Counted from the first letter of the stretch, positions 22,840 to 60,505 are shown. The stretch: DNA of 64,000 bases from an uncultured Pseudomonadota bacterium (GCA_963729535.1 CAVSOL010000017.1:233456-297455), one strand, 5' to 3'. Notes: generated from the letters alone by a model not told the origin. Made by a program: numbers and translations.

Positions 22840-22863
22840 CTACAACGAACTCAGGAGCCTGCC

Positions 22864-24142: not shown

Positions 24143-24143
24143 C

Positions 24144-25615: not shown

Positions 25616-25896
25616 AGCGCAGGACGGTCTACTTCTTCGGCGTCGCGGTGCCGCTGGCGCTGCTGCTCGGCTTCAAGCTGGGTCGCGATCGGCTCGTCGT
25701 GCGGCCGGGCGTCGTGGACACGCAGCACGGCCGCGCGTTCAAGGTGGCGTGGTCCGGGACCTCGTACGACACGGGCCGCGCGATCTACGGCCGCGTGGTC
25801 TGGCAGCCGGGGCTGTTCACGCCGCGCGTGCTGGAGAGCATCAGCCAAGCAGATTGCCTGTCCGACGAAACCATCGACGAACTGATCAACCAATAG
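25612..25896 (+). CDS. Small membrane-anchored protein (94 aa)
   Basis: ATGA start/stop overlap. N-terminal helix VYFFGVAVPLALLLGF. Confidence 0.5.
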   Translation: MKRRTVYFFGVAVPLALLLGFKLGRDRLVVRPGVVDTQHGRAFKVAWSGTSYDTGRAIYGRVVWQPGLFTPRVLESISQADCLSDETIDELINQ

Positions 25897-26377: not shown

Positions 26378-26423
26378 CGGTCGCGACTTTCATTCGATGA
26401 TTCACACCAACCTGGGAGGGGAC

Positions 26424-38573: not shown

Positions 38574-38957
38574 GTGCCCGTTCGTACCAAGCGCTGGAAC
38601 GATCCCGCGGACGTGGACGATGGGTTCCGGCTGCTCGTCTGCCGCATCCGCCCGCGCGGCATCGCCAAAACTGATGAGCCCTGGGACGAGTGGTGGCCCG
38701 ATCTCGGCCCCAGCCGCGGCCTGCTCGACGACTTCCACGGCAAGCGCGGCGCCGCCATCACCTGGGACGACTACGTGCCGCGCTACCTCGACGAGATGCG
38801 GGGCGCGGCGCAGCTGTGGCGCATCCGCGACCTCGCGCGCCGCGTGGGGGAGGGGGCCACCGTCACCTTGCTCTGCTCGTCGGCGTGCACCGACCCCGCC
38901 CGCTGCCACCGCACGCTGCTCGCCCGGCTCGTCACTGCGGCGGCAGCGCGACCATGA
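38574..38957 (+). CDS. DUF488-family protein
   Basis: RWNDPADVDDGFRLLVCRIRPRGIAK..WWPDLGPSRGLLDDFHG..VTLLCSS matches the DUF488/YeaO pattern. Confidence 0.7.
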   Translation: MPVRTKRWNDPADVDDGFRLLVCRIRPRGIAKTDEPWDEWWPDLGPSRGLLDDFHGKRGAAITWDDYVPRYLDEMRGAAQLWRIRDLARRVGEGATVTLLCSSACTDPARCHRTLLARLVTAAAARP

Positions 38958-40272
38958 GCACGTTGAGGCACATCTCGTTGCGCGTCCCCCAGCCCGGGAA
39001 CACGGGATCGCGATCGCGCGACGTATCGTATTCGCACGTGACCTCGAGCTGCGTGTCCGCCGTGATCCGCGGCGGCGTCCGGTAGAAATAGAACTCCTGC
39101 CAGTGGAAGTCCCAGTTCTCGATGCGCGACGCGCAGCTCATGCCGCCGGCGGGCCCCATCATCATCGTCTGGCGGACGCCGCGCTCGTGCATGTGCGGCA
39201 TGACGGCCACCAGGTCGACGTACGGGAGGCTGCCCAGGCCGAGGTCGGCGCCGGTTCGCGTCCACGTGTACTTCGTGTTCGCCTGGCCGGACGGTAGCGA
39301 GTCGGGCGTCGCGCTGTCCAGGCTGTCCAGGAACGGATCGGGGAGCAGGAACGCCAGGCCGCGGCTGACCGAGCTCGCGAAGCGCAGGCGCACCGTGGTG
39401 CTGTCGGTCTTGCCCGCGCTCGACGGGTCGACGAGGTTGTAGTGCACCTGCACCACCAGCTTGTCGGTGGTGCTCACGGGGAACCCCATGCCGCTCGGGT
39501 AGTTGACCACGCCCTGGCCGGGCGCCCAGGTCACGGGCACGCCGCTGACGTCGACGCCGTCGCCCGCGGCGCCGAAACACGGCCAGCCCAGACGATCGGG
39601 CGACGCGCCGTCGAGCTCCTGCATGATCGCCGCGTTGGTCCGGCCGCCGGAGCCCATCGCCGTCGGATCGACGGCGAAGACGAGGACGTGGTGGACGATC
39701 GACGGGTCGCCCGGAACCACGTCGTAGCCGGTGAGGAACGCGTTCGACGGGTTCGGCGGGTCGAGCAGGAAGCAGCGGTAGTCGTCGAACTCCGCCAGCG
39801 TCCCGCCCTGCGGGACGGGGGCGAACGTCGGCGTCTCGATGTCGAGCGCGCCCTCCAGCGCCGGCTTGGTCGGCAGCGTCAGCGTGACCTTCGTGCCCTC
39901 GGCCTGCGCACCTTCGACCCACGCGGCGATGGTCGCTTCTCGGCGGCGGTCAGCGTCGCGTCGCGCTTGAAACGACCCGCAGCTGTCGTCGTGGACCATG
40001 AAGTACGGCGGCATCGTGCCTTCGTTGACGCGCGCGAGCTCGGCGGCCGCGTGGGTCTTCGCGTCCGCGTAGTTGTCGAGGCGGAACGGGCCGATGCCCC
40101 CCTCCTGGTGGCAGCGCACGCACTTGGCGTTGTAGATGGGCGCCACGTCCTGCCAGAACGTGACGCCCATGCCTCCATCGCCCGGCGGGTTCGATCCGCC
40201 GCCACCACACGCGGCGGCGGACGTGATCACGATCAACAACACCAACAGCGTCAACGGTCGCTTTGTCTGCAT
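38932..40272 (-). CDS. Copper type II ascorbate-dependent monooxygenase-like (PHM/DBH-like) lipoprotein with an N-terminal CxxCH segment
   Basis: GAGGAG RBS and lipobox ITSAAACG. The N-terminus carries VAPIYNAKCVRCHQEGGIGPFRL. CuH-like residues: SIVHHVLVF and VQVHYN. CuM-like residues: MPHMHERG and RNEMCL. Confidence 0.75.
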   Translation of the reverse strand: MQTKRPLTLLVLLIVITSAAACGGGGSNPPGDGGMGVTFWQDVAPIYNAKCVRCHQEGGIGPFRLDNYADAKTHAAAELARVNEGTMPPYFMVHDDSCGSFQARRDADRRREATIAAWVEGAQAEGTKVTLTLPTKPALEGALDIETPTFAPVPQGGTLAEFDDYRCFLLDPPNPSNAFLTGYDVVPGDPSIVHHVLVFAVDPTAMGSGGRTNAAIMQELDGASPDRLGWPCFGAAGDGVDVSGVPVTWAPGQGVVNYPSGMGFPVSTTDKLVVQVHYNLVDPSSAGKTDSTTVRLRFASSVSRGLAFLLPDPFLDSLDSATPDSLPSGQANTKYTWTRTGADLGLGSLPYVDLVAVMPHMHERGVRQTMMMGPAGGMSCASRIENWDFHWQEFYFYRTPPRITADTQLEVTCEYDTSRDRDPVFPGWGTRNEMCLNVLMVALPPQ

Positions 40273-40355: not shown

Positions 40356-40960
40356 TCAAAGGACGAAGTTAACTAGCAGCTTTTCTTCGCCGCGAAGCAG
40401 TTCTTCCGGAAACCGCCAGCGTTTGAGTCGGTTGCTGTAGCAGCGCTTGACGTCTTTCGGCGAGCCGTCCGCGCCCAGGATCTGCACGAAGTCGACGGCG
40501 CCGTCGGATCCGATCTCGAACGCGGCGCCCAGCTTCATCGGCGGGCCGCGATCGGGCTCGGCGAGGCAATCGCGCAGCTCCGGCGCGCGCTTCTCGGCGA
40601 ACGCGCGCAGCGCCTGCGTGCGCGCGCCCTCGTCCATCGGCTTGCTATCCGGCAGCGGCGCCAGCGTCTTCGCCACCGGCTTGCTGCGCTTGCCCGCCGG
40701 CACGGCGGCGTGATGTCGCGCGGGCGCCGGGGCCGGCGCGGGCGCGCACGCGACGGGGGCGAGGGCACGCCGGGCGGCGGCGGCGGCGGCGCGGCCGCCT
40801 GCGCCTGGCGGCCGGCGACGAGGTATCCGGTCAGCCCGCCCGCCGCGAACACCACCAGCGCGAACGCCACCGCGCTGGCGGCGCGCCGCTTGGTCGCCGG
40901 CGCGCCGCCGGGGCGCGCGCCGTTTCTCAGCCAGGGGGGAAGGTCGGACCGGTTGGCCAT
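40356..40960 (-). CDS. Bitopic TonB/AgmX-like protein (TM helix, Pro-rich spacer, TonB-C-like domain). One frame change at the G5 run 40755-40759.
   Basis: MANRSD..KRRAASAVAFALVVFAAGGLTGYLV, then AAAPPPPPPGVPSPPVACAPAPAPAPA, then ELRDCLAE..KLGAAFEIGSDGAVDFVQILG..VKRCYSNRLKRWRFPE. Confidence 0.65.
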
Positions 40961-40979
40961 GTTCGCCGCTCGTGCGCGG

Positions 40980-42050
40980 TCAGCGCGAGCCGACGACCGC
41001 GGCGACACTCTTCCCGAGCTTCTTGACCGCCTCCTCGGGGTTCTCCGCGATCAACTCGCAGAAGTCGCCGATGTGGCCGGTGCCGCGGTTGGCGCCGTTG
41101 AGCGACAACATGAGCGGCATGAAGTACAGGTTGGCGGACGGCCCCATCACGTCGAACAGGTTGCCCGGGAAGCCGTTGATCTTCGAGCAGCGGGTCCGGA
41201 ACGCCGACAGCGACTCCCCTTCGGCGGTCGCGATGGCGACGTGGACGACCTGTCCGGCCGGGATGCCGGCGCCCGGGAACTTGAGCCACGCCGCGTTCCC
41301 GGCGGCGTCGGTCTCGCTCAGGATGTCGGCGGGCGCGCGTCCGTCGACCAGGCAGGCCGCGCTGTCCGCCGCGCAGCGCCGCTCGAGCGGCTGCAGGTAG
41401 ATGACGATGAACAGATCGCGCGGCTTGTCGAACAGCGCGGTGCGATCGATGCCGCCGAGTATCGGGGGCAGCGCCTCGCCGCCCAGCCCCTGCCCGAACT
41501 TGATCACCGCCTCCGCCTCCGAACGCGGCGGGTTGTCGCCTTCGAAGCTGCCCGACGACGCCAGCAGCCGGAGGACCTGCGGCAGGTCGTCGTTGCTGAT
41601 GTTGCCCAGCGAGCCGCCGATGAACGGCAGCAGCGACTCGTAGTCGCGCACGCCCGCGTCAGCCGCGCGCGCCAGCGCCGCCACCAGCACCTGCGAGTCG
41701 GTCGGCTGCGTCCCCGGCCGCTGCCCGAGCACCAGGCGCGGTCCGAACCGATCGGCGTACGTCGCGATGACGCCGATGTTCTCGACCTTCAGCCCGACAC
41801 CCTCCAGGTAGGCGCTGAGCCCCGTGAGGATGCTGGTGTACTTGTCCGCGAGGTTGGCCGACGAGCGCTGCAGGTTGGCCACCACCAGCACGCTCGCCGT
41901 CAGCGGCTTCGGCTGCGGCAACGCGTCCGGCCGGATCGGAATCAGCACGAACTTGGGCTCGCCGCCGTCATCGCCGCCCGGCACGACGACCGTACAACCG
42001 GCGACCGCCGCCGCCACCAGCAACACTCCCGAGAACACACGCGACTTCAT
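40980..42050 (-). CDS. Hypothetical lipoprotein (356 aa)
   Basis: ATGA overlap with the upstream stop. Lipobox LLVAAAVAGC. No family recognised. Confidence 0.6.
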   Translation of the reverse strand: MKSRVFSGVLLVAAAVAGCTVVVPGGDDGGEPKFVLIPIRPDALPQPKPLTASVLVVANLQRSSANLADKYTSILTGLSAYLEGVGLKVENIGVIATYADRFGPRLVLGQRPGTQPTDSQVLVAALARAADAGVRDYESLLPFIGGSLGNISNDDLPQVLRLLASSGSFEGDNPPRSEAEAVIKFGQGLGGEALPPILGGIDRTALFDKPRDLFIVIYLQPLERRCAADSAACLVDGRAPADILSETDAAGNAAWLKFPGAGIPAGQVVHVAIATAEGESLSAFRTRCSKINGFPGNLFDVMGPSANLYFMPLMLSLNGANRGTGHIGDFCELIAENPEEAVKKLGKSVAAVVGSR

Positions 42051-43156
42051 AGCGCCACCACCTTGCTCTTGGTTCCTTCATTGTCGGACGCAAGCCCCAG
42101 CGTCGGTGACGTCAGACCGCGATCGCGCAGCGCCTTGCGCAGCGCCGCGAACATCGCGCGGCGTGCCTCGGCGGATTCGCGCGGCGTCGGCGCCACCTCC
42201 AGCGACAGGTCTTCCTGGATCGCCGCCGCGACCGTCCGCGGCAGCGCGGCCAGCGCGCGCGTCGCGACGACCTCGGGGGCCTCCCGCAGGTAACGCGCCA
42301 GCACCTCGGTCGGCACCGCCATCGCGGCGGCGGCGAGCAGCTCGTCCGACACGCGCTCGAACGACTGGTCGTTGATCAGCGCCGCCTGCACGGCGCGCGC
42401 CTTCGCCGGGTCGGCGCGGCGCATCGCCTCCAGGATGTCGCCTTGCTCGTCGGACGGGCGCTCTTCGATCAGCTCGACGGCGAGATCGATGTCGCCGGTC
42501 TCGCCCGCGTCCAGGTGCGCCTGCTCCTCGGCGCGCGCGCGCAGCGTCGCGGCGACGTCGAGCAGGTGCTCCTTCGACAGCGACCGCGGCGCCGCCAGCG
42601 CCGCCGCCAGCGCCGAGCGCTCGGCCGGCGAGCGCTCGCCGAGGTAGACCGACCGCAGGTGGGCAGGGGCATAGCGCAGCGCCGCGGCCTGCACGGACGC
42701 CTGCTCGGGCGCCAGCACCGCCGCCAGCCGCTGCGGCGACAGCCCCAGCAGGAACGCGAACTCCTGTTCGACCGGATCCTCCGCGCCCACCATCCGGTGC
42801 TTGAGGATGCGCCGGTGAAGCTGCGCGACGATGTCGCGCGTGTCGCTGCGCGATCGCCCCTCGACGAGCAGCGCCGCCGCCTCGCGCAGCGGGACCGCGC
42901 ACGCCGGATCGCCGCGCAGGTCCTCGACCACGCCCGGGCCGACCAGCTCGACGGTGACGGCGACCTTCTCCAGCTCGCGCTCGCGCAGCAGCTCGCCCAT
43001 CACGCGGCGGGCCAGCACGCGATCCTCGCGCAGCGCGCGCCGCACGTCCGGCAGGTGATCGGCCGCGGCGGCGGCCGCGGCGGTCGACGCTGCCTTGCCG
43101 GCGCCCGCTGCCGTCGTCCGCGCTCTTGTCACGCCCCTGCGCCTGCGACGCTTCAC
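42047..43156 (-). CDS. FliG-like (FliG/MgtE-N superfamily) cytoplasmic domain protein. Probably continuous with 43153..43836 after frame correction.
   Basis: GDILEAMRRADPAKARAVQAALINDQSFERVSDELLAAAAMAVPTEVLARYLREAP and ALAALPRTVAAAIQEDLSLEVAPTPRESAEARRAMFAALRKALRDRGL resemble the FliG middle and C-terminal domains. This is pattern-level only; no alignment was run. Confidence 0.55.
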   Translation of the reverse strand: MKRRRRRGVTRARTTAAGAGKAASTAAAAAAADHLPDVRRALREDRVLARRVMGELLRERELEKVAVTVELVGPGVVEDLRGDPACAVPLREAAALLVEGRSRSDTRDIVAQLHRRILKHRMVGAEDPVEQEFAFLLGLSPQRLAAVLAPEQASVQAAALRYAPAHLRSVYLGERSPAERSALAAALAAPRSLSKEHLLDVAATLRARAEEQAHLDAGETGDIDLAVELIEERPSDEQGDILEAMRRADPAKARAVQAALINDQSFERVSDELLAAAAMAVPTEVLARYLREAPEVVATRALAALPRTVAAAIQEDLSLEVAPTPRESAEARRAMFAALRKALRDRGLTSPTLGLASDNEGTKSKVVAL

Positions 43157-43836
43157 CCTGGCGGCGCCGCGCCGACAGCAGCGCCATCACCAGCGCGCCG
43201 ATGATCAGGCCGGCGATCGCCAGCGCGATCGCGATCCAGATCGGCGTGCCGCGCAGCCCGGACGGGCTCCTGCGGCACGGGCGGCGGCGGCGCGGGCGCC
43301 GGCTGCCGCGCTCGGCGGGCTGCGGCGGCTGCTGCATCTGCGGCATCGGCGGGTAACTGAACGGCATCTCGCGCGGCGCCGGGCGCCTGCGGCCGCGGCG
43401 TCGGAAACGCGATCAGCGTCTCGCGGATATCGATCGGCACCGCGATGCCGTCCAGGCGGTTCTTGATCAGGGTCTTGAGGTCCTTGCGAAACGGCACCGG
43501 CAGCTTGGAGTCCAGCGTCAGCGCCACCTCCGCCTTCTCGGCGACGAACTCGGTGCCGGGCGCGAACTCCTCGAAGCCGGGCGCGGCGCCGGCGGGGAGC
43601 GCCGTCGGGCGCGTGACCCGCACGTCGACGTACTTGAGCTCCGCCTGACCGGGTGCCATCTGTTCCAGCAGCGGCACGATGCGGCGCTCGATGTCCTCGC
43701 GGACCCGCGCTTCCAGCATCGCCGCGTCGCTGCCGTTCGGCGGCCGCCGCTCGGCGCGTGCGGCGCCGGCGCCCAGCCACGTCAGCACCGCCGCGCAACC
43801 CGCGGCCAACACCACATGTCGTTTGAATCGAGACAT
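43153..43836 (-). CDS. Signal peptide, periplasmic domain, Pro/Gln-rich linker and single TM helix. This is the N-terminal part of the FliG-like protein if the two frame changes (about 43370 and 43140) are errors.
   Basis: ATG at 43836 with GGAGG 10 nt upstream. Signal VVLAAGCAAVLTWLGAGAARA. TM helix IWIAIALAIAGLIIGALVMALL followed by SARRRQ (frame of ORF 42078..43367). Confidence 0.55.
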   Translation of the reverse strand: MSRFKRHVVLAAGCAAVLTWLGAGAARAERRPPNGSDAAMLEARVREDIERRIVPLLEQMAPGQAELKYVDVRVTRPTALPAGAAPGFEEFAPGTEFVAEKAEVALTLDSKLPVPFRKDLKTLIKNRLDGIAVPIDIRETLIAFPTPRPQAPGAARDAVQLPADAADAAAAAARRARQPAPAPPPPVPQEPVRAARHADLDRDRAGDRRPDHRRAGDGAAVGAAPPG

Positions 43837-43849
43837 GGACCTCGTCCTC

Positions 43850-44554
43850 CTAATGAACACGGATCACCACTCGCCTGTTTTCCGAACGGGCGCGGGTCTG
43901 CGCCGCCCCGTCGCCGGTGACGGTCGTCGCCGGCCTCGTCTCCGCGTAACCTTGCGCCGACAGCCGCTGCGGGCTGATGCCGGCGGCCGTGAACTGCTTG
44001 AGCACGTTGATCGCGCGCGCCGACGACAGATCCCAGTTGGAGTCGAAGCGCGCCGTGTGGATGGGGACGTCGTCGGTGTGCCCCTCGATCGCGATCTGGT
44101 AGCGCGAATCGATGGTGGGCACCATCTTGACGACGCGATCGATCGCCGTGCGGCCCCCCTGCGTGATGTCGGCCTGGCCGCTGTCGAACAGCAGCGCGTT
44201 CTTCAGCTCCATCCGCAGCCCGGCGTCGTCGACGACGGTCTTGACCTGCGCCTGCAGCCCCTGCACCTCGAGCATCTGGTCGATCTTTTCCTTCAGCGCG
44301 TCCAGCGACGGCGGCGGCGCCGTGCGCGACAGCGCGGCGGACACCATCTCGAACTTGTGCAGGCTGACCTTCGACATCGCCAGCGCCAGGATCAGGAACG
44401 CGAGCAGCAGGCTGATGACGTCGACGTAGGGCAGCAGCCACGACGTGTCGTCGTCCTCGCTGTAAGCCAGCAGGTCGGAGTGGTCGTGCCCCCGACTGGC
44501 GCGCGCCGCCCTGGCGGTGCCGGGGACGGCGGCCTGGGAATCCGCCACGCTCAT
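43850..44554 (-). CDS. motB: MotB-type stator subunit with an OmpA-like peptidoglycan-binding domain
   Basis: ATGA overlap with motA. TM with conserved Asp: WLLPYVDVISLLLAFLILALAMS. OmpA-like domain: IAIEGHTDDVPIHTARFDSNWDLSSARAINVLKQF and GYAETRP. Confidence 0.9.
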   Translation of the reverse strand: MSVADSQAAVPGTARAARASRGHDHSDLLAYSEDDDTSWLLPYVDVISLLLAFLILALAMSKVSLHKFEMVSAALSRTAPPPSLDALKEKIDQMLEVQGLQAQVKTVVDDAGLRMELKNALLFDSGQADITQGGRTAIDRVVKMVPTIDSRYQIAIEGHTDDVPIHTARFDSNWDLSSARAINVLKQFTAAGISPQRLSAQGYAETRPATTVTGDGAAQTRARSENRRVVIRVH

Positions 44555-45312
44555 GCAGCCTCCGCCGACGGTGGCGCGCTACCGGACGCGCCCGACAGCA
44601 GCCGCAGGTCGTAGAGCGATCGCCCCTCGGCGATGCTGGTCAGGCCGCGCTCGAGCAGGCGCGCGCTGACCGACAGGTTGCGGCCGTAGCTGTCGATGCG
44701 GCGCGCGAACGGCGCCCAGATGCCGTACGCCAGGATGAGGCCGTAAAGCGTCGCCAGCTGCGCGACCGCCATCGCCGGCCCCAGCTGCTCGAAGTTGCGC
44801 AGGTTCATCAGCATGTTCACCAGGCCGACGATCGTCCCCATCAGGCCGACGGCGGGCGTCGTGCGCGCCAGGAAACGAAACACCTCTTCGCCCGCCTTGA
44901 CCTCGGCGAGGCGCGCGTACGACAGGGTCAGCACGGTCTCGCGCGCGTCGGCGCCGCCGCCCGGTTGCAGCAGCAGCGGCCCGACCTCGCGCAGCAGCGG
45001 GTCCTGCGCCTCGGCGAGCACCTTCGACGCCTCGACGTTGCGCCCCTGTTTCAGCTCGCGGCCGAAGCGATACAGGTCGGCGATCATGCGCGCCTCGGCG
45101 CGGCGCGGGTTGTGGCGAAGCGCCTGCGCCAGCGTCACGATGCCCCGCCAGATGTCGGACAGGTTGTGGCCCACCAGCAGGATCGCGGGCGGCGCGCCGA
45201 GCAGCAGGATGAACGCCGCCGGGTGGAAGAACCCGGTGAACCCCGTGGGCATGTGGTTGCGCGTCGCCACCAGCGTCAGCGCCAGACCCGCCAGACCAAA
45301 GATGATGTGCAT
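44551..45312 (-). CDS. motA: MotA/PomA-type stator channel subunit (4 TM)
   Basis: TM1-2: IIFGLAGLALTLVAT and AAFILLLGAPPAILLVG. A cytoplasmic loop of about 100 aa follows. TM3-4: TTPAVGLMGTIVGLVNMLMN and AVAQLATLYGLILAYGIWAPFARRI. Confidence 0.9.
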   Translation of the reverse strand: MHIIFGLAGLALTLVATRNHMPTGFTGFFHPAAFILLLGAPPAILLVGHNLSDIWRGIVTLAQALRHNPRRAEARMIADLYRFGRELKQGRNVEASKVLAEAQDPLLREVGPLLLQPGGGADARETVLTLSYARLAEVKAGEEVFRFLARTTPAVGLMGTIVGLVNMLMNLRNFEQLGPAMAVAQLATLYGLILAYGIWAPFARRIDSYGRNLSVSARLLERGLTSIAEGRSLYDLRLLSGASGSAPPSAEAA

Positions 45313-45342
45313 TCGTTTGTCTGCCTTTTACGTTGCTGATGT

Positions 45343-46113
45343 CTATTTGCTGAGGCGCTGCAGCGCTTCCAGGATCGCCAGGTTGTAGGGATTGATGCGC
45401 AGCGCCTGCTGCCACGCCTCGCGCGCCATCTGCTTCTGGCCCAGGCGCTCGGCCAGCGAGCCCTTCATCGACAGGATGTGCTCGTCGTCGGGGTATTGCC
45501 GTTCCAGCTCGACCAGCTCGACCAGCGCCAGCTCGTATTGCCGCGCGCGGTACATGTCCTTCACGCGCGCCAGCGTCAGCAGGTAGCTGGCCTTCGCCGC
45601 CGGCGGCTTGTCGGCGCCGGGCGCGGACGCCGGCGTCACCCTGCGCCGGTCGGGCTTGGCGGCCTTCGCGTCCTTACCGTCATCTTCGTCCTCGTCGTCC
45701 GCGGCCGCACGCTTGCCGCGCGCGCCCGCCTTTCTACCCACGTTGCCGTCGCGCGCGTCCTTGGGCCGATCGCCGTCGGCGAGCTGTTCCGCCCGCGCCG
45801 ACGCCTCGCGCTCGGCCATGATCTCGCGGTCGGCGGCGGTCATCGACGCCAGGTCGGCGCGCATGCCCGTCACCTTGCCGCTCATCGGCACCTTGACCTC
45901 GTACGCGGTCGCGATCTCGGGCAGCTGGATCTCCCAGTCGCGCTGGCCGTCGGTCATCTTGACGACGTAGCGCGTGCGCGGCGGCTCGCCGCCCGCCGTG
46001 TACGGCGCCCCGCGCAGCAGCTCGGGCGGCACGCGCACGTCGGCGGGGACGGGCCGCGTCAGCGTGCAGCCGCCCGCCGCGATCAGGAACGCCAGTATCG
46101 AAAGTCTTGCCAT
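45343..46113 (-). CDS. TPR lipoprotein with a highly charged central linker
   Basis: Lipobox AFLIAAGGC. Central linker KRAAADDEDEDDGKDAKAAKPD. C-terminal TPRs: YELALVELVELERQYPDDEHILSMKG..AREAWQQALRINPYN. Confidence 0.7.
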   Translation of the reverse strand: MARLSILAFLIAAGGCTLTRPVPADVRVPPELLRGAPYTAGGEPPRTRYVVKMTDGQRDWEIQLPEIATAYEVKVPMSGKVTGMRADLASMTAADREIMAEREASARAEQLADGDRPKDARDGNVGRKAGARGKRAAADDEDEDDGKDAKAAKPDRRRVTPASAPGADKPPAAKASYLLTLARVKDMYRARQYELALVELVELERQYPDDEHILSMKGSLAERLGQKQMAREAWQQALRINPYNLAILEALQRLSK

Positions 46114-46118
46114 CGATT

Positions 46119-47537
46119 TCACCAGTTCATCGCCGCGCGCAGGCGGAAGCCAACGCCACCTAGATCGTAGCCCGAGAACTTCGTCGGGAACACGTACATG
46201 AGCCCTCCCTGCAGTGACAGCCGCCACTTGAGGTGCGTGTCCAGGCCGCTCTCGACATAGAACGTGTTCCCCTCGTTGCCGGAGAACATGCCGCCGCCCT
46301 CCGTGTAGAACCAGACCTCGGCGCGATTGAGGTTGGGCGGCGACAGGTTGTGCGAGAAGTACGCGCCGAGCAGGATCGAGTTCAGCGCGGTCGGGCCCCC
46401 GGCCGTCGCCTGTTTGGGTGGTCCGGTGGTGAAGATGCCCGCGGACAGCCCGAACAGGCTGCCCAGGTCCTCACCGAACTTCTCGTGAAACCTCAGTGAC
46501 ACCTGCGCGCCGGCGATGCTGCCGGTGGGCGCGTTGTAGCCGACCTGCGCGACGCCCAGCGACGCCGCGTAGCCGTAGTTGGGGCGCGCGGCGATCTTCT
46601 GTTCCAGCTCGGCGGCGCGTTCGGCGCGGGTCGGGATGCGGCGTCCGGTGCGCAGCAGCGCCGCCATCGTGGCGTCCGACCGATAGGCGTCGCTCCACAC
46701 CACGCCGCCGTCGGAGGCGCGGAACGCCATCGCCTGCATCCACACCACGTTCGAGTTCGGCGCGTAGGTGAAGTCGACGTCCATGAACGTCTTGATGCCG
46801 GTGGTCTGGCCGATGCGCCGCAGGTCCTCCTGCTTGACCGCGCCCATCGTCACCATCCAGTTGCCGTCCTCGACGCGCGAGCGCAGCGACGTGCACTCGG
46901 CGCACACCGTGATCTTGACGCTGGTCGAGTTGACCAGCCGCGCGATCAGGCGCGTCTCCAGCGTGCGCGCGAACTCGGGTCGCAGGTTCGCCGACAGGCG
47001 CACCAGCCGGATCGACATCGGCGACAGCAGGTTCGGATCCTCGCGCGCGAGCTGGCGCGCGATCTCGTCCATGATGTCGTCGACCAGCTCGAAGAAGTCG
47101 ATGCTCGACTGCGATCGCTGCACCAGCTGTTCGACCGCGCTGGGCGACGCCGGCCGCTGGGGCTGCGCGCGCTGCTCGACCTGGACGCGGTTGGAGCTCG
47201 ACACGCCGGCCGACGCGGCTTCGACCATCGTCCCGGGCCGCTTCGGAGTCGTGGCCGGCGGCTGCGTCGGCTGGCGGTAATAGCTGCGCGGGGTCTCCCG
47301 GTCGTTTCGCTGTGGCACCTCGCCGGTCTTGGGATCCGGCTGCCCCTGCGAGGAGTCCTGGCTCCGCCTCGGTTGCGGCGGCAAGGAGTCCGGGGTCCCC
47401 GACGGCGGCACCCACGGCGCTTGCTGCGCCTGCGCCCACGCGGCGCGCTCCGCCAGGGCGCCCGCGACGAGCGCGGCCGCGATCCCGATCGCCGTCAATG
47501 ACCTAGAACGCAATGCCCACCTGGAAACGGACGCCAT
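46119..47537 (-). CDS. Predicted outer-membrane protein: Pro/Gln-rich linker, alpha/beta domain (LpoB/CsgG/FlgO-like pattern) and C-terminal beta-barrel
   Basis: Signal SLTAIGIAAALVAGALA. Alpha/beta domain: IDFFELVDDIMDEIARQLA..IRLVRL..TLETRLIARLVNSTSVKI..EDLRRIGQTTGIKTFMDVDF..AMAFRASDGGVVWS. Alternating beta pattern ending ..GVGFRLRAAMNW. Confidence 0.6.
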   Translation of the reverse strand: MASVSRWALRSRSLTAIGIAAALVAGALAERAAWAQAQQAPWVPPSGTPDSLPPQPRRSQDSSQGQPDPKTGEVPQRNDRETPRSYYRQPTQPPATTPKRPGTMVEAASAGVSSSNRVQVEQRAQPQRPASPSAVEQLVQRSQSSIDFFELVDDIMDEIARQLAREDPNLLSPMSIRLVRLSANLRPEFARTLETRLIARLVNSTSVKITVCAECTSLRSRVEDGNWMVTMGAVKQEDLRRIGQTTGIKTFMDVDFTYAPNSNVVWMQAMAFRASDGGVVWSDAYRSDATMAALLRTGRRIPTRAERAAELEQKIAARPNYGYAASLGVAQVGYNAPTGSIAGAQVSLRFHEKFGEDLGSLFGLSAGIFTTGPPKQATAGGPTALNSILLGAYFSHNLSPPNLNRAEVWFYTEGGGMFSGNEGNTFYVESGLDTHLKWRLSLQGGLMYVFPTKFSGYDLGGVGFRLRAAMNW

Positions 47538-48313
47538 GTTTGTCCGCATCAACGCTGCTTTGCCATATCGCCAGCAAATCCTTGCTCGGGAGCACCATCG
47601 TGTCTTCCGCCCCCGTGAAGTAGATGTATTCGAACAGGTATTCGAGGCTCAACCGTAGCGCGGAGACCGACAGCTGCACGCCGGCCGCCAGGTTGAGGCT
47701 GTGGGCCCGGCCATTGCCTTTCATGAAGACGCTCTGCCCTGTCATCGGGTCGAAGCGAAAGACCTGCAGGTGGGCCTTGGTCACCGAGAAGCCCGCGCCG
47801 ACAAACGGCGTGAAGTCCTTGGGGAGCAGCATCCAGCGTCCGCTGCCGCCCATCAACGTCCGGGTGCAGTCGCCGTTGAGCGACCCGTACATGTCCGTTG
47901 CAGTTCATCTCGCGCTTGCCGTAGCGGGCGGAGACCTCGAGCTGGCGCAGGATGTTCCACGAGAACACCGCGCCGTAGCTGGCCAGGCCGGTGCCCAGGA
48001 AGCCTTCGACCGACAGCGGGCGCTGCACGCGCTGGGGCTGCGTGGTCGCGAGCCAGTTCGCGATCGCGGCCTCGCGCGCCTGTTGCTCGGCGACCATCGC
48101 CTGCCGCCGCTCGTTGGCCAGCCGGCGCTCGAACATCTGCAGCCGGCACGCGCGGTGGGCACGCGCGGCCGCGGGGCTTTCGTCTTCGGGGTCGAACGAC
48201 AGCGCCTGCTCGCACGCGTCGTCGCTGACCTGCTGCACGAACGACTGTGCCCGCGCCGCGCGCGCGCCTGCCAGCGCCAGCGCGACAACGACGAGGACGC
48301 GCGCGGCGATCAC
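47503..48313 (-). CDS. Predicted outer-membrane beta-barrel protein. One frame change near 47890.
   Basis: GTGA overlap with the upstream stop. Signal VLVVVALALAGARAARA. C-terminus ..HGVRFQVGIAF. Confidence 0.6.
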
Positions 48314-50347
48314 GAGCCGCCTCCAGTCGATTGGACGCTGTCGACGCTGCCAACGGCGCCGTTGGCGCCCATGGCGACGCCGAGCGGGCGCGGCCAGCGA
48401 CGCAGTCCGCCGGGGGTGGGGTCATTGCCGCGGCTGGGGACGAACACGACCGGTCCGACCTCTTCCAGCGCCGACCCGACGTCGATGCGCGGCATGCGCA
48501 CGTCGTACTTGCGGCCGATGAGCACGTCGCCGAGCAGGATCGGGCGCCGAGCCGAGCCCACCGTCTCCGCGTACGCGCGCGCCCCGGTCTTGAGGTGGGC
48601 GCTGGCGGCGCGATACAGCGTCGTCAGCTCCTCGTCGACGGGTCCCCGGCCCGCGTCGCCGAGGTGACGCTTCAGCGTATCCACCAGCGTGCCCAGGTTC
48701 GCCTGGTCGTCGTTTTCGACCAGCGCCGGCAGCGCGTCGCGCGCCACCACCAGCAGCGCGCGCTGCCAGTTCACCGACCGCGCCGCGCGCCGCTTGTCGC
48801 GCGCGCGGTCGCGCTCGGCCGTCGCGATCAGCGCGCCGTCCTTCGGAAGTCTGTCCGCGCGCGGTTTGTCAGCATTCGCCTTGGCGTTGAGCGCGATCGC
48901 GTGGCGCATGCTGTCGTCCATGTCGAGCTCGCTGTTCTCCTCCTGGCCGGCGAGCAAGCGGAACGTGCGCGCGAACTCGGCGACGGTCGCCGGCGCGCGC
49001 CGCCGCGACCGACGCGCGCGCCAGGTGCTGCAACGGGCGGCTGCCGTCCTTGTCGTTTTCGTTCAGCCACAGGAAGGTGGCCATCGCCGACTTGAACGCC
49101 TGCGCCTCCAGCGCGAGCTGCGCGAACGCCTCCGCGCGCTGCAGGCGCTCGCGCGGCGGACCAAGCGACTCCAGCACCTCCAGCGTCTCGGCGGAGACCG
49201 GCGACGCCAGCAGCGTGCGCAGCGCCAGGTCCATGACCGCCGCCAGCGCCGGATCTTCGTCCACCTCGCGCCGCGAGCGCCGGTTCAGCACCTCGCGCGC
49301 CTCCGCCAGCAGGTCGCCGCGGCGGCCGGCGCGCGCGTGCGCCTCGGCCTGGCGGAACGCGATGAAGCGCCCCACGGGGTCCTGGCCGTGGGGCGGCGGG
49401 CCGAGCATCACGACGGCTTCGTCCTTCTTGCCGAGCGCGATCAGCCGTTCAGCGAGCAGCAGCGACAGCGATCGGCGTGTCTCGGGCGCCAGCGGCAGCG
49501 CCAGCGCGGCCCGCCCGCGCGCCTGCAGCTCTTCGGCGGTCAGGTGCGGCCACGACAGGGCGGCGACGCCCGACGCCAGCAGCATGCGCGCGCGTTCGGC
49601 GGGCGCGATCGCGTCGGGCGCGAGGCGCTCGAGGCGCGCGAGCGGCGCCGCCGCCGCGGCCGCGTCGCCGCGCGCGACGTCCAGCACCGCGGCCTGCACG
49701 AGCAGCACCGGCGTCGCGGGGTGGGAGGCGGGGAGGGTGGTGGCGGCGTTCGTCACCAGCGCCACCTCGCGCTCGCTGGCGGCGGCGCTGGTGAGCCCGG
49801 CGACCTGGGTCGGTTGGTCTCCGCAAAGGCTGGTGACCGCCGGCATCGGCAGCTCGTCGCTCCAGTGCTCGCGCTCGACGGGCCAGAAGATGCCGCCCTC
49901 CCGCTCGCCCAGCTGCGTGCGCGCCGGCGCCGTCGCCCGCCCCGCCGCCTGGGTGCCGCGACTGAGCCGGAGGCGTTCGATCTGCACCAGCCGCCGCAGG
50001 TGGTCCCACGGATCACGCAGCGGCTTGCGAATCGCCTGCGCCGCCGGGATCGCCGCCAGCGGCTCGCAGCGCAGGAGCGCGAGCAGCTCGGACCAGAAGT
50101 CCAGCGCGGTGTCCGGTCGGCCGGCTTCGCGGTCCGCGAGCCGCGTCAGCGCGACGTGCGCCGTCGTCAGGTCCCCGCGCCACACGGCATCGCCGGTCGC
50201 GACCAGCAGCTCGTCCCGCGTCTCGTGCGCCGGCCCGACAGCGCCGACCAGCGGCGCGCGCTGCGGCCGACGACCGGACGCCGCGCACGCGGCGCACGCC
50301 GAGACGGCGGCCAGAGCCGTCGCGATGACGACGGCGCGCCCGTTCAC
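48310..50347 (-). CDS. Large hypothetical lipoprotein/periplasmic helical protein (about 679 codons). One frame change near 48955.
   Basis: GTGA overlap with the upstream stop. Signal AVVIATALAAVSACAAC. ORFs 48869..50347 and 48310..48957 join as ..ARASVAAARAGDR / ..FRLLAGQEENSEL.. No family recognised. Confidence 0.6.
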
Positions 50348-51120
50348 AGCGTCCCTCCCACGCCGATCGAGGGCATGATCCCCCAGACCGAGACGCCGTT
50401 GCCCGAGCGCTGCTCGCGTTCGTACACCACCGAGGCGTCGATGCGCGCGAACAGCTTGGGCGTGAAGAACACCAGCAGGCCCAGGCCCGTGTCGGCCGAC
50501 GGCCCCGTGTCGCCGTCGTGGACGTGCAGGCCGCCGCGCGCGAACACCTGAGGCTCGAAGTGCAGCACGCCGCCCAGGCCGCCCACCATCAGCTTGCCGT
50601 AGCCGATGGAGTAACGCGCCCCCGCCAGCATCAGCCAGCCGGGCGCGTGGCTGTCCGGGATCGCGCCCAGCGTCTCCTTGATGCGCTCCGCCTCGGCGTT
50701 GAGCGAGCTCCAGAAGTGCGACACCTGCAGCTCGATTCCGAGCTGCTCGAGCAGGTAATACGTGCCGCCGGCGCGGAAGCCGGGGCTGATATAGAAGTCG
50801 CCGCGCGACAGGTACGCGAACCCGCCGGAGATCTGGAACTGCTTCGACTTGACCGCGTAGCGCGACTGCACGCGCACGGCGGTCACGGGGCGCGGCGCCG
50901 GGTCGGCGATCAGGCCGCGCGCGGGGGCGAGCGGCGCGGTCGCCGCCGCCGTCAGCGGCGTGGCCGCGGGCGCCGTGGTCGCCGCCGCGGGCGCGGGCGT
51001 CGCCGCGATCGGCTTCGACGCCGCGGGGGCCGAGGCCGCCGCCACGCGCCTAGTTGTCGTCGTCGTGGCGACGACTGTGACAACTAGGCAGGCGGCCAGC
51101 GTCGTCGAGCGCATCGACAT
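50344..51120 (-). CDS. Predicted outer-membrane beta-barrel protein (myxobacterial OMP beta-barrel-like)
   Basis: This is the C-terminal part of ORF 50344..52500, starting at MSMRSTTLAACLVVTVVA. Ala/Pro/Thr-rich linker, then YAVKSKQFQISGGFAYLS..ARYSIGYGKLMVGG..SIGVGGTL. Confidence 0.65.
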   Translation of the reverse strand: MSMRSTTLAACLVVTVVATTTTTRRVAAASAPAASKPIAATPAPAAATTAPAATPLTAAATAPLAPARGLIADPAPRPVTAVRVQSRYAVKSKQFQISGGFAYLSRGDFYISPGFRAGGTYYLLEQLGIELQVSHFWSSLNAEAERIKETLGAIPDSHAPGWLMLAGARYSIGYGKLMVGGLGGVLHFEPQVFARGGLHVHDGDTGPSADTGLGLLVFFTPKLFARIDASVVYEREQRSGNGVSVWGIMPSIGVGGTL

Positions 51121-52790
51121 CAGTAGTCCTTGCTCGTGCAAAACGGGCTGTCCACCCATGACTCCTGGCCCATGCCACTCGGCGTGACGTAGCCGTGGTC
51201 CTCGCAGTAGCGCGTGCAGATCTGATAGTTGACGCGCACCTGGGCCGCGACGAACGAGCTCCCCGGCACCTCCACCTGTTCGGGCAGCCCGACCAGGTAT
51301 GCCGGCGGATCGGCGGTCGTGATCTCCCAGCTCGGCTCGAAGATCGGGATCGCGTATGGCCCGGCCGACGACACCGGGAGGATCTCGGGGCTCGACGTGC
51401 AGATCTTGATCCGCTTTCCGGCATGGGTCTCGACGTCCTGGGGCGACAGCAGGTGCACGGGAACGTCCGAGCTGTGAAGCTGCGTCCTGAAGGGGAGGTT
51501 GCCCCTTTGGTAGGTGTCCAGCATCAGCTCGAAGGTCGGGTCGTCGTAGGTCAGCCAGGGCTCGGGGTACATCCACGGCAGCTCGGACAGCGTTCTCGTC
51601 GTCGGCGGGGAGAACATCCAGGCGAACGTCTGCAGGGTGTGGCCGGGGGGCGGCCCGGCGAGCGCGGCGAACAGCTCCTCGAGCGACTGGGTCAGCTTCG
51701 GCGGCAGAAACCCATCCGAGTTGTTGAAATACAAGAAGTGGTACTGGTGATGGACCTCTGTGAACGTCGTGACGGTCTGCTTGACGGCGTCCGCGATCTG
51801 GGCGGCCGCGACCGTGCGGCCGGTGGGCTGGTGGCAGCCCGGTGACAGGTCGATCGTCGGCAGCTTGCGGACGACCGCTTTGTCGCCCCTCATGTATTCC
51901 GCCGTGAGGCTCTCGATGGTCGCCGCCGCCTCCGCGCAGCGGTCGGCGAGCGGAATCTCCAGATCCAGGACCACCTGGTAGATGATCGGCGACGTCTCGA
52001 TCGGCGGGTTCAGCACCTGCTGCGCCGTCACGACCTCGGGCAGGGTGGCGATGGGCGCCTGCAGCATCGCCCTGTCGCCGTTGTCGGTTGGCACCGGGCG
52101 GACGGCGACGCAATACCGGCCGGCCGCGGTCAGCGGCTTGTCGGGTGGAATACCGGCCATGAGATCCAGCGGGTGAAACACCACGTCGTCGGGCGGCGTA
52201 TCGGCAACGCACACACCGGCCGTTGGCCACAGGGCGCGCTCGAACTGCCGGGGGAACTTGTAGTCCCCGGCGCTGCCGACGGCGTCCGTCAGGTTGACGA
52301 AAACGGGGTCGTTCTTGAAGTTGAAGAACGCCTTCATCGTGAACGAATCGGCGATGGTTTTCGACTTGGCCGGCGCGCCGGGCAACTCGCCATAGGCCTC
52401 GTGAACCGCCCGGACTGGACGAAACTGTCCGGCCGGCGGGCGCTGCGGGTAGTGGCCACGCACGACGTATTGCGCGCAGCTGTGCGTGCCGTCGCCGCAC
52501 GCGACGACGCCGCCGGTGAACAGCGAGCGCGAGAAGTCGACGGGCTGGTAGCCATCGGGGCCGAGCAGCTCGAACCGCGCCTCATCAACGGGGGCGGTTG
52601 CCTCGACACGCCAGCGCACGATCGTAAGGTGCTCCTGCGCGCTATAAACCAGCTCGACATTCTGTGGGGTGAAGGGCGACGGCAGGAAATGAACGTCGCC
52701 GCAGCCGACGACGGCGGTCGTCAGCAGCGCCATCCACGCCAGGCAGCGATGGCGGCCGGATTGCTTTGTGGGAGACTGAGGAGCAAGCAT
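51120..52790 (-). CDS. Large hypothetical lipoprotein (556 aa), first gene of the operon
   Basis: Lipobox LLTTAVVGC. Intact ORF with lower Arg/Ala bias than its neighbours and 10+ Cys. Its stop shares 1 nt with the next start (TGATG). Confidence 0.65.
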   Translation of the reverse strand: MLAPQSPTKQSGRHRCLAWMALLTTAVVGCGDVHFLPSPFTPQNVELVYSAQEHLTIVRWRVEATAPVDEARFELLGPDGYQPVDFSRSLFTGGVVACGDGTHSCAQYVVRGHYPQRPPAGQFRPVRAVHEAYGELPGAPAKSKTIADSFTMKAFFNFKNDPVFVNLTDAVGSAGDYKFPRQFERALWPTAGVCVADTPPDDVVFHPLDLMAGIPPDKPLTAAGRYCVAVRPVPTDNGDRAMLQAPIATLPEVVTAQQVLNPPIETSPIIYQVVLDLEIPLADRCAEAAATIESLTAEYMRGDKAVVRKLPTIDLSPGCHQPTGRTVAAAQIADAVKQTVTTFTEVHHQYHFLYFNNSDGFLPPKLTQSLEELFAALAGPPPGHTLQTFAWMFSPPTTRTLSELPWMYPEPWLTYDDPTFELMLDTYQRGNLPFRTQLHSSDVPVHLLSPQDVETHAGKRIKICTSSPEILPVSSAGPYAIPIFEPSWEITTADPPAYLVGLPEQVEVPGSSFVAAQVRVNYQICTRYCEDHGYVTPSGMGQESWVDSPFCTSKDY

Positions 52791-52914: not shown

Positions 52915-53409
52915 ATGATCAGAATGTCGCGAACATGGTGTGCAGTCCTCCGCACTTCATGTCTGATTTTAGCGGTCTTCGTGGCGGGTTGCTGCGGTGG
53001 TGGACCGACGCACAAGTGTGACTTCACCCCACCCAACCTCAACATGAATGACGGGGGGGTCGACGGGCAGCTCCTCTGCGGGACCATGGCCTGCGAGCTC
53101 CCCCAGGTCTGTTGCGTGAAGAAGGTGCCGCTGACCGCCTGGTGCATCGACCAGGCCGATTTCATCCCCCTCGGTTGCGAGAAGGCGGACCTCCCCTGCC
53201 TGGGGCCCAGCGACTGCCCGGCCGGTCTGACCTGCTGCCTGTCCTGGTCGCAGCTGTCGGTGTCTTGCCGCCCCGTCCAGCTCTGTCCCAACGACATGAT
53301 GGACACCTACCGGGTCTGCACCGAGGACTCGGATTGTCCCAGCGGGCAGCTCAACGCGTGCATGGAGGTCTCCATGACGGACCAGGGCGCGCTCAGCATC
53401 TGTTTCTGA
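52915..53409 (+). CDS. Cys-rich small lipoprotein (19 Cys from the lipobox onward)
   Basis: Lipobox AVFVAGCCGG. Repeated SDCPxG motifs (SDCPAGLTCC, SDCPSGQLNAC). Divergent from the operon start. Confidence 0.6.
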   Translation: MIRMSRTWCAVLRTSCLILAVFVAGCCGGGPTHKCDFTPPNLNMNDGGVDGQLLCGTMACELPQVCCVKKVPLTAWCIDQADFIPLGCEKADLPCLGPSDCPAGLTCCLSWSQLSVSCRPVQLCPNDMMDTYRVCTEDSDCPSGQLNACMEVSMTDQGALSICF

Positions 53410-58801: not shown

Positions 58802-60388
58802 TCAGGGCGCGCCGGTGACCAGCACCGGCTTCTGCGGCACGCCGCCCACGTATTCGATCGCCACCGCGACGTTCTTCGACGGGAACATCGTGCGGTCGGC
58901 CAGGTTCAGCTTGTCCCAGCCGACGCCGCGCGCGCGCAGATCGGCGACCGAGGCCGCGGCGATCCACGACCCGGTGTTGGCGTAGAAGCCGGAACGGTCC
59001 TGCGCCCGGATGGCCTCGACCGAGCCGCCGACGGCGTGGGTGTGGCCGAGGACGACGACGCTGATGCCGGCCGGGCCGCCGAGCAGCCGCGCCGCGGCCG
59101 CGTTCAGCGGATCTCCGAACAGCTCGGCGCGCAGGTGGACGAGCGCCTGTGGATCGATGGCGCGCAGCTCGGTCAGCGCGGCGCGGAAGTCGGGCAGCGC
59201 CTTGGCGGCGCGGGTGAGCGCGGTCCACAGCCCGGCCAGCGCGGGATCGAAGCGGAAGCGCATCAGCGCGCCGGTGAGCGAGGCGACGCTGACGTCGCCG
59301 TTGATCAACCGGTTGCTGACGTGCTCGATCATCTCGGTCGACGGATTCCGGGCCGCGGTCGCTCGCCCCTGGCGTGCCGAAGGCGCTCTGCAGCAGCGAC
59401 GTCGACCGCGTTGCGGTTGAAGTCGCCGCTCTCGGCGACGCGCAGCAGGTCGATGAAGCGCATCACCGCCCCCGCGTCGCGCTGCGGGTCGGGGTTGTCG
59501 CGCATCGCCCACAGGATCGCGGCCGACTGCGGGTAGAGGTTGTCGATGAACGGCAGCCGGCGCTCGACGTCCGTGTAGAACTGGTCGACGAAGATCTCGC
59601 CCCAGCTAGCCTGCAGGCGGCAGGCGCCGTCGCGATCGCGGCCAAACGGCGCGTGGCTGGTCGAGAACCTGTTCGCCGCGTCGAACGCGTGCCCGTGCTC
59701 GACGTGAACGCCGCCGTGGTCGTAGGTCGGGCCGGGCGTGAACAGCAGGCGCGACGGGTCGCGCGGCTGGATGGCGCGCGCGATCGCGAGCTGCACCTTG
59801 GGCCACAACAGATCCGCGTCGTGGTTGCCGGCGACGATGATCACGCGGTGATCGCCGCCGTCCAGCAGCTTGCCGAGGTCGCGTGAACACCGAGCGGTGC
59901 GCCGCGATCACCAGCTCGACGGCGGCGACGCCGAAGGCCTGGTCCGCGCCCAGCACGGCGCCCTCCGCCGGCTGGCGGGCATCCGTCCGTCTGGGCAGCG
60001 CGCCCAGCGCCGCCGCGATCTGCCAGAACTCGATGAAGTCGCCGTTGATGATCAGGTCGGTGGGGCCGGCCGCGGCCTGCCGCGCGAGGAACGCCGTCCA
60101 GGCGGCCTCGGAGTAGAAGTCCTCGATGCCGGTGAACCGCGCGTCGGTGGCGCCGGGGCCGAGGTGCAGGTCGCTGACGATCACCTTGCGCCGCAACTGC
60201 GGCTCGACATCGACCAGCGCGGCGTCCGCCACCGTCCGCGCCAGCAGCCGATCGCACAGCGTCCGGTCGTCGAGCTGCGCGGCCGGGAAGCGCGCCGCGA
60301 TCGGATCGCCCGCCGGGGTGGCGGGCGTCGGCCCGGTGATGGCGCACGCGGACGCCAGAAACAGCACGGCCCACGCCCTTGCGAGCAT
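58802..60388 (-). CDS. Secreted calcineurin-like metallophosphoesterase. Two frame changes (about 59340 and 59865).
   Basis: Lipobox-like AVLFLASACA. Metallophosphoesterase motifs: VIVSDLHLG, INGDFIEFW, IIVAGNHD, VVLGHTH. Confidence 0.85.
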
Positions 60389-60505
60389 GGGCCGAGCTTA
60401 ACTCAATGGGCGGCGATCCAGCGTGACGCCGCTCGCTGCCTGTCCTTGAGCTTCAATCGGGCGACGCTGGGGCACGCGCTGACCGGCCGGTGCTAGGCTG
60501 CGGTC

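Follow-up and report, generated by a model that had tools for sequence, protein, structure and literature searches.

An eleven-gene operon of uncultured soil Polyangia that looks like an undescribed proton-driven cell-envelope machine

The operon and its stator

Flagellar-type stators and the rotor protein FliG are known to cooperate only inside the flagellum. Here, we analyze an operon at positions 40356-52790 of a 64,000-nucleotide stretch of DNA (GCA_963729535.1, CAVSOL010000017.1:233456-297455; the whole stretch is called the window below), in which a MotA/MotB pair is encoded next to a membrane-anchored protein with a FliG-like cytoplasmic part. The eleven genes all lie on the minus strand and are named g1 to g11 in the order 52790 to 40356. 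All are present with the extents first stated for them, the start/stop overlaps and short gaps between them agree with the coordinates, and tblastn with the eleven intact proteins of a related 100-kb metagenomic contig (L001) covers 40359-52772 without any change of order. In L001 itself the genes stand in the order of the studied operon, and the proteins from g1 to g11 measure 561, 266, 665, 278, 461, 251, 253, 233, 594, 357, and 202 aa. The original prediction, made from the sequence of the window, had read the operon as eleven or twelve open reading frames (ORFs), with eleven listed on the minus strand; its extents and order stand, whereas g3, g4, g9, and g11 are not open as given and show internal stops on translation.

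The A subunit of the stator is encoded by g7 (44551-45312), a clean ORF of 253 aa of the MotA/PomA type. It matches the Pfam family MotA_ExbB (E = 4.6e-15), and among the NCBIfam models PomA (7e-20) and MotP and MotA (both ~2e-18) are far ahead of ExbB (2e-4) and TolQ (4e-4). The best relatives in the PDB are likewise flagellar MotA (8gqy, 2e-16) and PomA (1e-15), with ExbB at 4e-3. The equivalents of P173 and P222 of E. coli MotA are invariant, and a cytoplasmic insert of ~90 residues aligns with the inserts of MotA and PomA and carries the conserved basic residues R85, K/R88, and R91. At 84-88% identity among loci, conservation within the cluster is highest for g7.

The B subunit is encoded by g8 (43850-44554), a clean ORF of 234 aa of the MotB type, with a transmembrane (TM) aspartate at position 45, a plug, and an OmpA-like peptidoglycan-binding domain. 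The Pfam matches are MotB_plug (E = 2.7e-8) and OmpA (E = 3.7e-17), the NCBIfam matches MotD (2e-40) and MotB (3e-38), and the PDB matches MotB entries 6ysf and 6ysl (~1e-26). D45 aligns to D32 of E. coli MotB and is invariant in every lineage examined, as is the motif GHTDD..SNWELS, which g8 has in common with E. coli MotB. Both halves of the predicted stator, a four-TM MotA/PomA-type channel and a MotB with TM Asp and OmpA-like domain, are thus borne out. To judge by these profile scores, the g7/g8 stator is of the flagellar type and not of the TolQ/ExbB type.

The candidate rotor protein g9

Which protein might such a stator act on? The candidate is g9 (42047-43836), a protein of ~590 aa whose gene carries four frameshifts in the window; the frames were resolved against intact homologues, which are 580-600 aa long and up to 98% identical. 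An AlphaFold2 model was built from one of these (P0003, 97% identical to the studied protein) with a 31-sequence alignment, and reached a mean predicted local distance difference test score (pLDDT) of 75, with most structured domains at 82-92. From the N terminus, the model consists of a signal peptide, a periplasmic alpha-beta-beta-alpha-beta domain, a disordered Pro-rich linker, a single TM helix, and an all-helical cytoplasmic part of ~320 residues.

Similarity to FliG in this membrane protein, which the original prediction had proposed, is found at the level of profiles. g9 scores 28.0 bits against Pfam FliG_C (PF01706; gathering score 23.3), many of its homologues carry precomputed PF01706 matches, and some of them also match PF14841 FliG_M. 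The NCBIfam model TIGR00207 fliG matches at E = 8e-6, with model positions 108-318, that is, the M and C domains, aligned, and a comparison by hhalign of the g9 family with E. coli FliG gives E = 2e-4 at a probability of 45%. As the profile search of PDB sequences was too weak, a fold comparison was needed. In a Foldseek search of the g9 model against the PDB, all top 13 matches are FliG. The best of them is 8wiw_3 (E = 7e-7), and the full-length FliG chains among the top matches align with g9 over ~310-325 columns. The pLDDT of the FliG-like region is mostly 82-92, and 70-79 in four 10-residue blocks. Because 318 columns are aligned out of the 310 residues in 8wiw_3, the match covers the whole N-M-C length of FliG and not only the middle and C-terminal domains, to which the predicted likeness had been confined. 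The model thus shows the cytoplasmic ~320 residues of g9 in a FliG fold.

For the C-terminal "torque helix", residues were counted in a 36-sequence alignment of the g9 family, in which equivalence to FliG was taken from the hhalign alignment with its probability of 45%. Position 539, the equivalent of FliG D289, is acidic in 36/36 sequences, and position 538, the equivalent of D288, in 19/36. Basic residues occupy positions 531 and 533, in the R281 region, in 16/36 and 24/36 sequences and position 548, in the R297 region, in 18/36. On this alignment, g9 is shown to keep the charged signature of the torque helix. The columns equivalent to the FliM-binding EHPQR motif are not conserved in the same 36 sequences, which fits the absence of FliM and FliN at the locus: tblastn over the 64 kb found neither fliM nor fliN near g9.

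Unlike soluble FliG, which is docked on the C terminus of FliF, g9 is a type-I inner-membrane protein that carries its own signal peptide, periplasmic domain, and TM helix. The periplasmic domain has an H-E-E-H-E topology with a pLDDT of ~90, and its likeness to a ring-building motif is only suggestive because the folds of OsmC and MamM-CTD score alike in the structural comparison. On account of this ring-building-motif-like topology, the modeled protein resembles a fusion of FliF with FliG. In longer relatives of g9, two or three copies of the periplasmic module stand in tandem, a pattern also seen for the ring-building motifs of FliF and SctJ. These longer relatives, of 739-969 aa (P0191 = L018:2036-4255, P0216/P0273), match both FliG_M and FliG_C of Pfam, and each of their module copies has a CxxxC pair that is lost in the Polyangia group.

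Accessory genes, reading frames, and distribution

The other eight products (g1-g6, g10, and g11) are all exported or envelope proteins. The four lipoproteins and three predicted outer-membrane beta-barrels of the original prediction are both recovered. Lipoproteins are encoded by g1 (51120-52790; 556 aa, Cys-rich, lipobox ..VGC/GDV, GC3 0.88, where GC3 is third-position G+C), g3 (48310-50347; ~670 aa with one frameshift, and an intact 665-aa orthologue in L001), g6 (45343-46113; 256 aa, lipobox AGGC, with the tetratricopeptide repeats at its C terminus that match TPR_2 at E = 1.9e-5), and g10 (40980-42050; 356 aa, lipobox AGC/T), with a 4-nt overlap between its start and the stop of g9. The lipoboxes of g1, g6, and g10 are conserved among orthologues, and that of g3 is present and variable. 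Of the predicted barrels, g2 (50344-51120; 258 aa) has an N-terminal signal-like segment and matches the myxobacterial barrel model TIGR04565 OMP_myx_plus (E = 4e-12) with 46 bits, under the cutoff of 60. The products of g4 (47503-48313; ~270 aa, C-terminal ..VGYAF, with a 1-nt insertion in the gene) and g5 (46119-47537; 472 aa) have signal peptides and C-terminal beta-signals that are conserved among orthologues, with Phe in g4 (..AF) and Trp in g5 (..NW). In g5, a disordered Pro/Gln-rich stretch and a conserved periplasmic domain with a CxxC pair precede the C-terminal barrel; its identity among Polyangia loci is 61-81%, and a single-sequence AlphaFold2 model of it (pLDDT 33) was unusable.

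The last gene of the operon, g11 (40356-40960), is frameshifted and encodes a bitopic protein of ~200 aa in which a Pro-rich linker is combined with a TonB_C-like C-terminal domain of the AgmX/PglI kind. It had been described as TonB/AgmX-like, and this description holds insofar as the protein matches NF033768 myxo_SS_tail at E = 3e-7; the score of 28-30.4 bits is under the cutoff of 40. The intact orthologue in L001 has a weak TonB match too. For g1, g3, g4, g5, and g10, Pfam and NCBIfam gave no relatives, profile searches of PDB sequences with g1, g5, and g10 gave nothing, and hhalign found no paralogy among the accessory products. Divergent from the operon lies a gene for a small Cys-rich lipoprotein (52981-53406, plus strand; ~144 aa, lipobox VAGC, ~16 Cys), for which no family match was found. 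Its position is kept in L001, L003-L007, L009, and L012, and it is the only conserved neighbor beyond the operon, within the Polyangia group. The small lipoprotein may be a twelfth component or an assembly regulator.

Long spurious ORFs are common in the window because its G+C content is 68-76%, and coding status was decided from GC3 together with homology. Seven genes are clean ORFs with a GC3 of 0.88-0.95 (g1, g2, g5, g6, g7, g8, and g10). Inside g3, g4, g9, and g11 the GC3 plot shows the coding frame switching, and tblastn matches are split between frames. There is one switch in g3 (near 48981-49022), one in g4, caused by the 1-nt insertion at ~47896 at a junction resolved at the nucleotide level, four in g9 between ~43385 and 43100 (frames -2, -3, -2, -3, -1), and at least one in g11 between 40691 and 40805, which amounts to at least seven one-base shifts over 12.4 kb. 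Each of the three indels resolved at the base level is a short homopolymer extended by one base. The g9 homologues P0001-P0006, which are 92-98% identical, are unbroken, and the nearest genomes are metagenome-assembled genomes (MAGs), several of which show comparable split matches. Given the homopolymer indels, the intact homologues, a split alpha-2-macroglobulin gene elsewhere in the window, and the similar splits in the nearest MAGs, the frameshifts most likely reflect errors in the consensus of a long-read assembly and not gene decay.

How widely is the cluster distributed? A collection in which each species is represented by a single genome contains 14 loci of the g9 family, every one from an uncultured MAG labeled Polyangia, Myxococcota, Myxococcales, or "uncultured proteobacterium". 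About ten MAG species keep g1-g11 in the same order, without exception on contigs of sufficient length. When 1.84 billion representative proteins were searched exhaustively with the family profile, only 249 clusters reached E <= 1e-3, and the g9 family is therefore small; canonical FliG was not retrieved by the profile at this threshold. Of further large homologue searches, one gave the same Polyangia clade and another eight proteins. Relatives of g9 that are only 25-30% identical lie on contigs of 55-66% G+C, and three of these loci (L017, L024, and L026) have the same eleven-gene layout. In L025 the layout is reduced to g5 to g11, with g1 moved downstream of g11 and g2-g4 missing. This layout suggests that the large lipoprotein and the two barrels encoded by g2-g4 belong to a module that can be dispensed with or is encoded separately. 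The 969-aa variant of g9 with extra periplasmic repeats is encoded directly after MotA and MotB, and the gene for the 739-aa relative, on a contig of 33% G+C, adjoins a DsbA-like gene.

Orthologues of g1 are present in the divergent loci L024, L025, and L026, those of g2 in L024 and L026, and those of g5, g6, and g10 in all divergent loci. The least conserved component is g11, which escapes profile detection in three divergent loci. Because it is shared by the divergent layouts, the constant core of the cluster is, as far as orthologues can be recognized by profile, MotA-MotB-g9 with g5, g6, and g10. The comparison shows that the cluster is inherited as a unit, in which MotA, MotB, and g9 have stayed together with most accessory genes over deep divergence.

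The original prediction had noted no fliF, fliM/fliN, flhA/flhB, rod, hook, or flagellin genes in the 64 kb, and tblastn with 30 E. coli flagellar proteins indeed found MotB only. By hhalign, the profiles of the eleven products match only MotA and MotB among the same 30 proteins, which means that the sequence of g10 has no likeness to FlgI or FlgH. A profile comparison of the relatives' loci found no flagellar genes in the 10 kb on either side of the match.

Promoter and terminator scans at both ends of the operon gave nothing on the operon strand, and inspection by eye revealed no convincing sigma-54 site upstream of g1. A sigma-54-dependent activator (20225-21952, minus strand; Sigma54_activat, E = 1e-50) is encoded ~30 kb from the operon. 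The larger neighboring genes are unrelated to the operon; besides this activator they encode TPR proteins, an SPFH protein, an alpha-2-macroglobulin with PBP1C, a DUF885 protein, and a copper monooxygenase-like protein. The last of these (38932-40272, minus strand; 446 aa, cytochrome c-like at the N terminus and with both the N and the C domain of copper type II monooxygenases) follows g11 on the operon strand after 84 nt, and is probably not part of the system because its downstream position is conserved in L001 only. The alpha-2-macroglobulin gene (26397-32088, plus strand), outside the operon, consists of two overlapping ORFs in different frames with a break at ~29690 that points to a frameshift, the first with the MG and bait-region domains and the second with A2M, TED, and MG10. 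It is followed, in the usual pairing, by a PBP1C-type gene (32100-34400). Overlapping same-strand open frames with coding-type GC3 occur elsewhere in the window as well (for example, 8650-9755, 22654-24147, 24057-25896, and 58802-60397), which suggests further single-base indels at a rate of about one per few kb, as in an unpolished long-read assembly.

A proposed envelope machine, its rivals, and its relation to known systems

What might this operon build? The reading we prefer, with a probability of roughly 0.55, is that the eleven genes encode one self-contained, envelope-spanning, non-flagellar machine driven by ion-motive force, in which a peptidoglycan-anchored stator acts on the FliF/FliG-like fusion g9 and passes energy to an outer-membrane complex. 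In such a machine the stator would be fixed to the peptidoglycan via the MotB protein g8, and ion flow through MotAB would turn the MotA ring against the anchored MotB. The cytoplasmic domain of MotA could then push the C-terminal helix of the FliG-like part of g9, as in the flagellar motor. Acting as a natural FliF-FliG fusion, g9 would probably oligomerize into a small rotor ring in the inner membrane, and this ring would need no FliM/FliN switch, export gate, or rod. The periplasmic ring and the Pro-rich linker of g9 may hand the motion on to g10, g6, and the TonB_C-like g11, to the barrels g5, g4, and g2, and to the lipoproteins g1 and g3. At the surface, the output could be gliding-type transport, surface-polymer export, or outer-membrane remodeling. 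By analogy with Agl-Glt/Nfs and GldLM, we favor a surface transport or gliding-type role.

Several observations weigh against this reading. All evidence is computational, and ring formation and rotation of g9 are things that we infer. The identity between g9 and FliG is only ~14-20%, the scores of 21-25 bits against TIGR00207 are far under the cutoff of 226.7, and PDB sequences searched by means of the g9 family profile returned zero FliG matches. In the Foldseek search with the periplasmic head, FliF (E = 0.02-0.1) and PrgK and EscJ (~0.1) were accompanied by similar scores for OsmC and MamM-CTD. On the stator side, three alignments place the equivalents of MotA R90 and E98 differently in g7. 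The 739-aa g9 relative has no MotAB on its short 8-kb contig, four operon genes are frameshifted in the window itself, and the absence of flagellar genes refers to the 64 kb and the relatives' loci, not to the rest of the genomes.

The main rival is a non-rotary use of the stator, of the Ton/Tol kind, in which MotAB would energize g11, or g9, to pull on outer-membrane partners, while the FliG-like domain would recruit, gate, or regulate the stator as a clutch or adaptor and no ring would form. The TonB_C-like AgmX/PglI domain of g11 and the wealth of outer-membrane barrels and lipoproteins in the operon fit this picture, as does the fact that the known non-flagellar 5:2 motors all use a periplasm-spanning partner (PMC9389320), and a g9 ring is so far our deduction. 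However, g8 has the plug and the OmpA-type anchor that are typical of a fixed stator and are missing from TolR, ExbD, and AglQ/S, the strictly conserved acidic position in the torque helix argues for a contact of the MotA-FliG type, and the supposed pulling protein g11 is the very component that is least conserved and goes undetected by profile in three divergent loci. We consider the non-rotary mechanism unlikely, and all other rivals are rated lower. Decay of the operon to a cluster of pseudogenes in the studied strain, with real frameshifts, would explain why at least seven of them fall within 12.4 kb, but appears improbable: apart from the shifts there are no in-frame stops or deletions, GC3 stays at the coding level in the shifted frames, and the pieces of g9 are up to 98% identical to intact homologues (92.7% when the last 371 residues are compared). 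In the indels examined a homopolymer has gained a single base, the unrelated alpha-2-macroglobulin gene is split too, and close relatives from long-read MAG projects show the same kind of split matches.

Public pipelines label g9 homologues "flagellar motor switch protein FliG", and this label, the flagellar type of the stator, and a search for flagellar genes limited to the 64 kb and the relatives' loci would agree with a spare or specialized rotor-stator set of a conventional flagellum encoded elsewhere in the genome. We regard such a set as distinctly improbable, since g9, besides lacking EHPQR, is equipped with a signal peptide, a periplasmic domain, and a TM helix, is always found among genes for outer-membrane barrels and lipoproteins, and has zero flagellar genes around it in the 64 kb or within 10 kb of the relatives' matches; moreover, the carriers found are Polyangia/Myxococcota, which are not known to bear flagella. 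The original prediction had likened the scaffold to the myxobacterial Agl-Glt gliding and Nfs spore-coat machines. This likeness holds for the composition, with three barrels, TPR lipoproteins, and a bitopic protein with an AgmX/PglI domain in a myxobacterial host, and for the two sub-threshold matches to OMP_myx_plus and myxo_SS_tail, but homology is not demonstrated. That the cluster is a divergent orthologue of one of these machines seems very improbable, because its MotAB-type motor is anchored to peptidoglycan and is not a TolQR-type AglRQS, no product reaches any NCBIfam gliding model, and Glt and Nfs are not known to have a FliG-like component (PMC9389320). The GltG equivalog NF033760 gliding_GltG, the one Glt protein tested, scores 11-13 bits against a cutoff of 650, with no more than the shared C-terminal domain NF033768 recognized, and Glt orthology was rejected on this basis; as far as NCBIfam reaches, there is no orthology to characterized Glt components. 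A Zorya-like anti-phage system built on the MotAB-like ZorAB pair was suggested by the match of g8 to ZorB (best E = 1.6e-21). It is scarcely credible and was rejected, as g7 has no ZorA match, no other product has a PADLOC match, the flagellar MotB/MotD models score much higher for g8 (2e-40), and the operon encodes envelope proteins.

The preferred reading of a self-contained envelope machine can be taken further, more tentatively. It is possible that the operon encodes an independent non-flagellar rotary machine in which a one-polypeptide rotor, made of a ring-building head, a TM helix, and FliG, is turned by peptidoglycan-anchored flagellar-type stators and coupled to a complex in the outer membrane. 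Such a machine would be either a surviving relative of a rotor-stator pair older than the flagellum or the product of an exaptation of that pair, in Myxococcota and other uncultured lineages, to serve a new function at the surface.

Full-text literature searches, which left most subscription journals outside their coverage, returned no description of a non-flagellar system of MotAB with a FliG-like protein, in line with the earlier suggestion of a possibly undescribed machine. A 2025 survey of MotAB evolution treats the flagellar-type stator class (the "FIT" group) as flagellum-specific and lists no such system (PMC12505986), and the only systems named in a 2022 review of 5:2 motors are the flagellar, Ton, Tol, Agl, and Gld ones (PMC9389320). 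The operon of these uncultured soil Polyangia looks like an undescribed proton-driven cell-envelope machine, and we rate it as a new kind of envelope machine on a known motor principle. If this is true, the torque-generating pair alone, with FliG fused to its own anchor and combined with orphan outer-membrane proteins, would add another class to the ion-driven envelope machines. Beyond that, it would offer a natural "minimal rotor" for torque studies without switch or export apparatus, a test case for the origin or re-use of the flagellar rotor-stator interface, and a function to seek in abundant, uncultured soil Polyangia.

How does the proposed machine compare with known systems? Like TonB-ExbBD and Tol-Pal, it would be an inner-membrane, ion-driven motor that energizes outer-membrane processes, and the operon includes a protein with a TonB_C-like domain. 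In contrast to those systems, g7 matches ExbB/TolQ at ~1e-4 and PomA/MotA at ~1e-20, g8 has a MotB plug and an OmpA domain, and a FliG-like partner is unknown in Ton/Tol. With Agl-Glt/Nfs the operon shares a myxobacterial host, a motor driven by proton-motive force, envelope-spanning barrels, TPR lipoproteins, and an AgmX/PglI bitopic protein, and its machine may likewise move something at the cell surface. However, the Agl motor is TolQR-like, lacks the OmpA anchor, and is mobile in the membrane, whereas the operon's stator is of the MotAB type and anchored, and Agl-Glt has no FliG-like protein. The likeness of the accessory set to Agl-Glt/Nfs is one of composition only.

GldLM-GldKNO, of Bacteroidota gliding and type IX secretion, is also a non-flagellar 5:2-type ion-driven motor, and it is thought to transmit rotation through the periplasm to an outer-membrane-associated complex. 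There, GldM is a rotating, periplasm-spanning B-type shaft, whereas the B subunit of the operon is a peptidoglycan-anchored MotB and the part that would move is a FliG-like protein distinct from it, with the drive coming from the cytoplasm; the Gld proteins have no sequence relationship to the operon products.

The closest comparison is with the core of the flagellar motor, where MotA5B2 acts on FliG at the FliF MS-ring. The locus lacks FliM/FliN, the export gate, rod, hook, filament, and FlgH/FlgI rings, and its partner proteins are orphan outer-membrane barrels and lipoproteins instead. The FliG-like part of g9 is, unlike FliG, covalently joined to a membrane anchor and has no EHPQR. In common with the flagellar core, the operon has a MotA and a MotB with plug, TM Asp, and OmpA-like anchor, and a partner with a modeled FliG fold and the conserved acidic position of the torque helix. 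While g9 fails the FliG equivalog test, the torque-generating pair of the operon is homologous to that of the flagellar motor.

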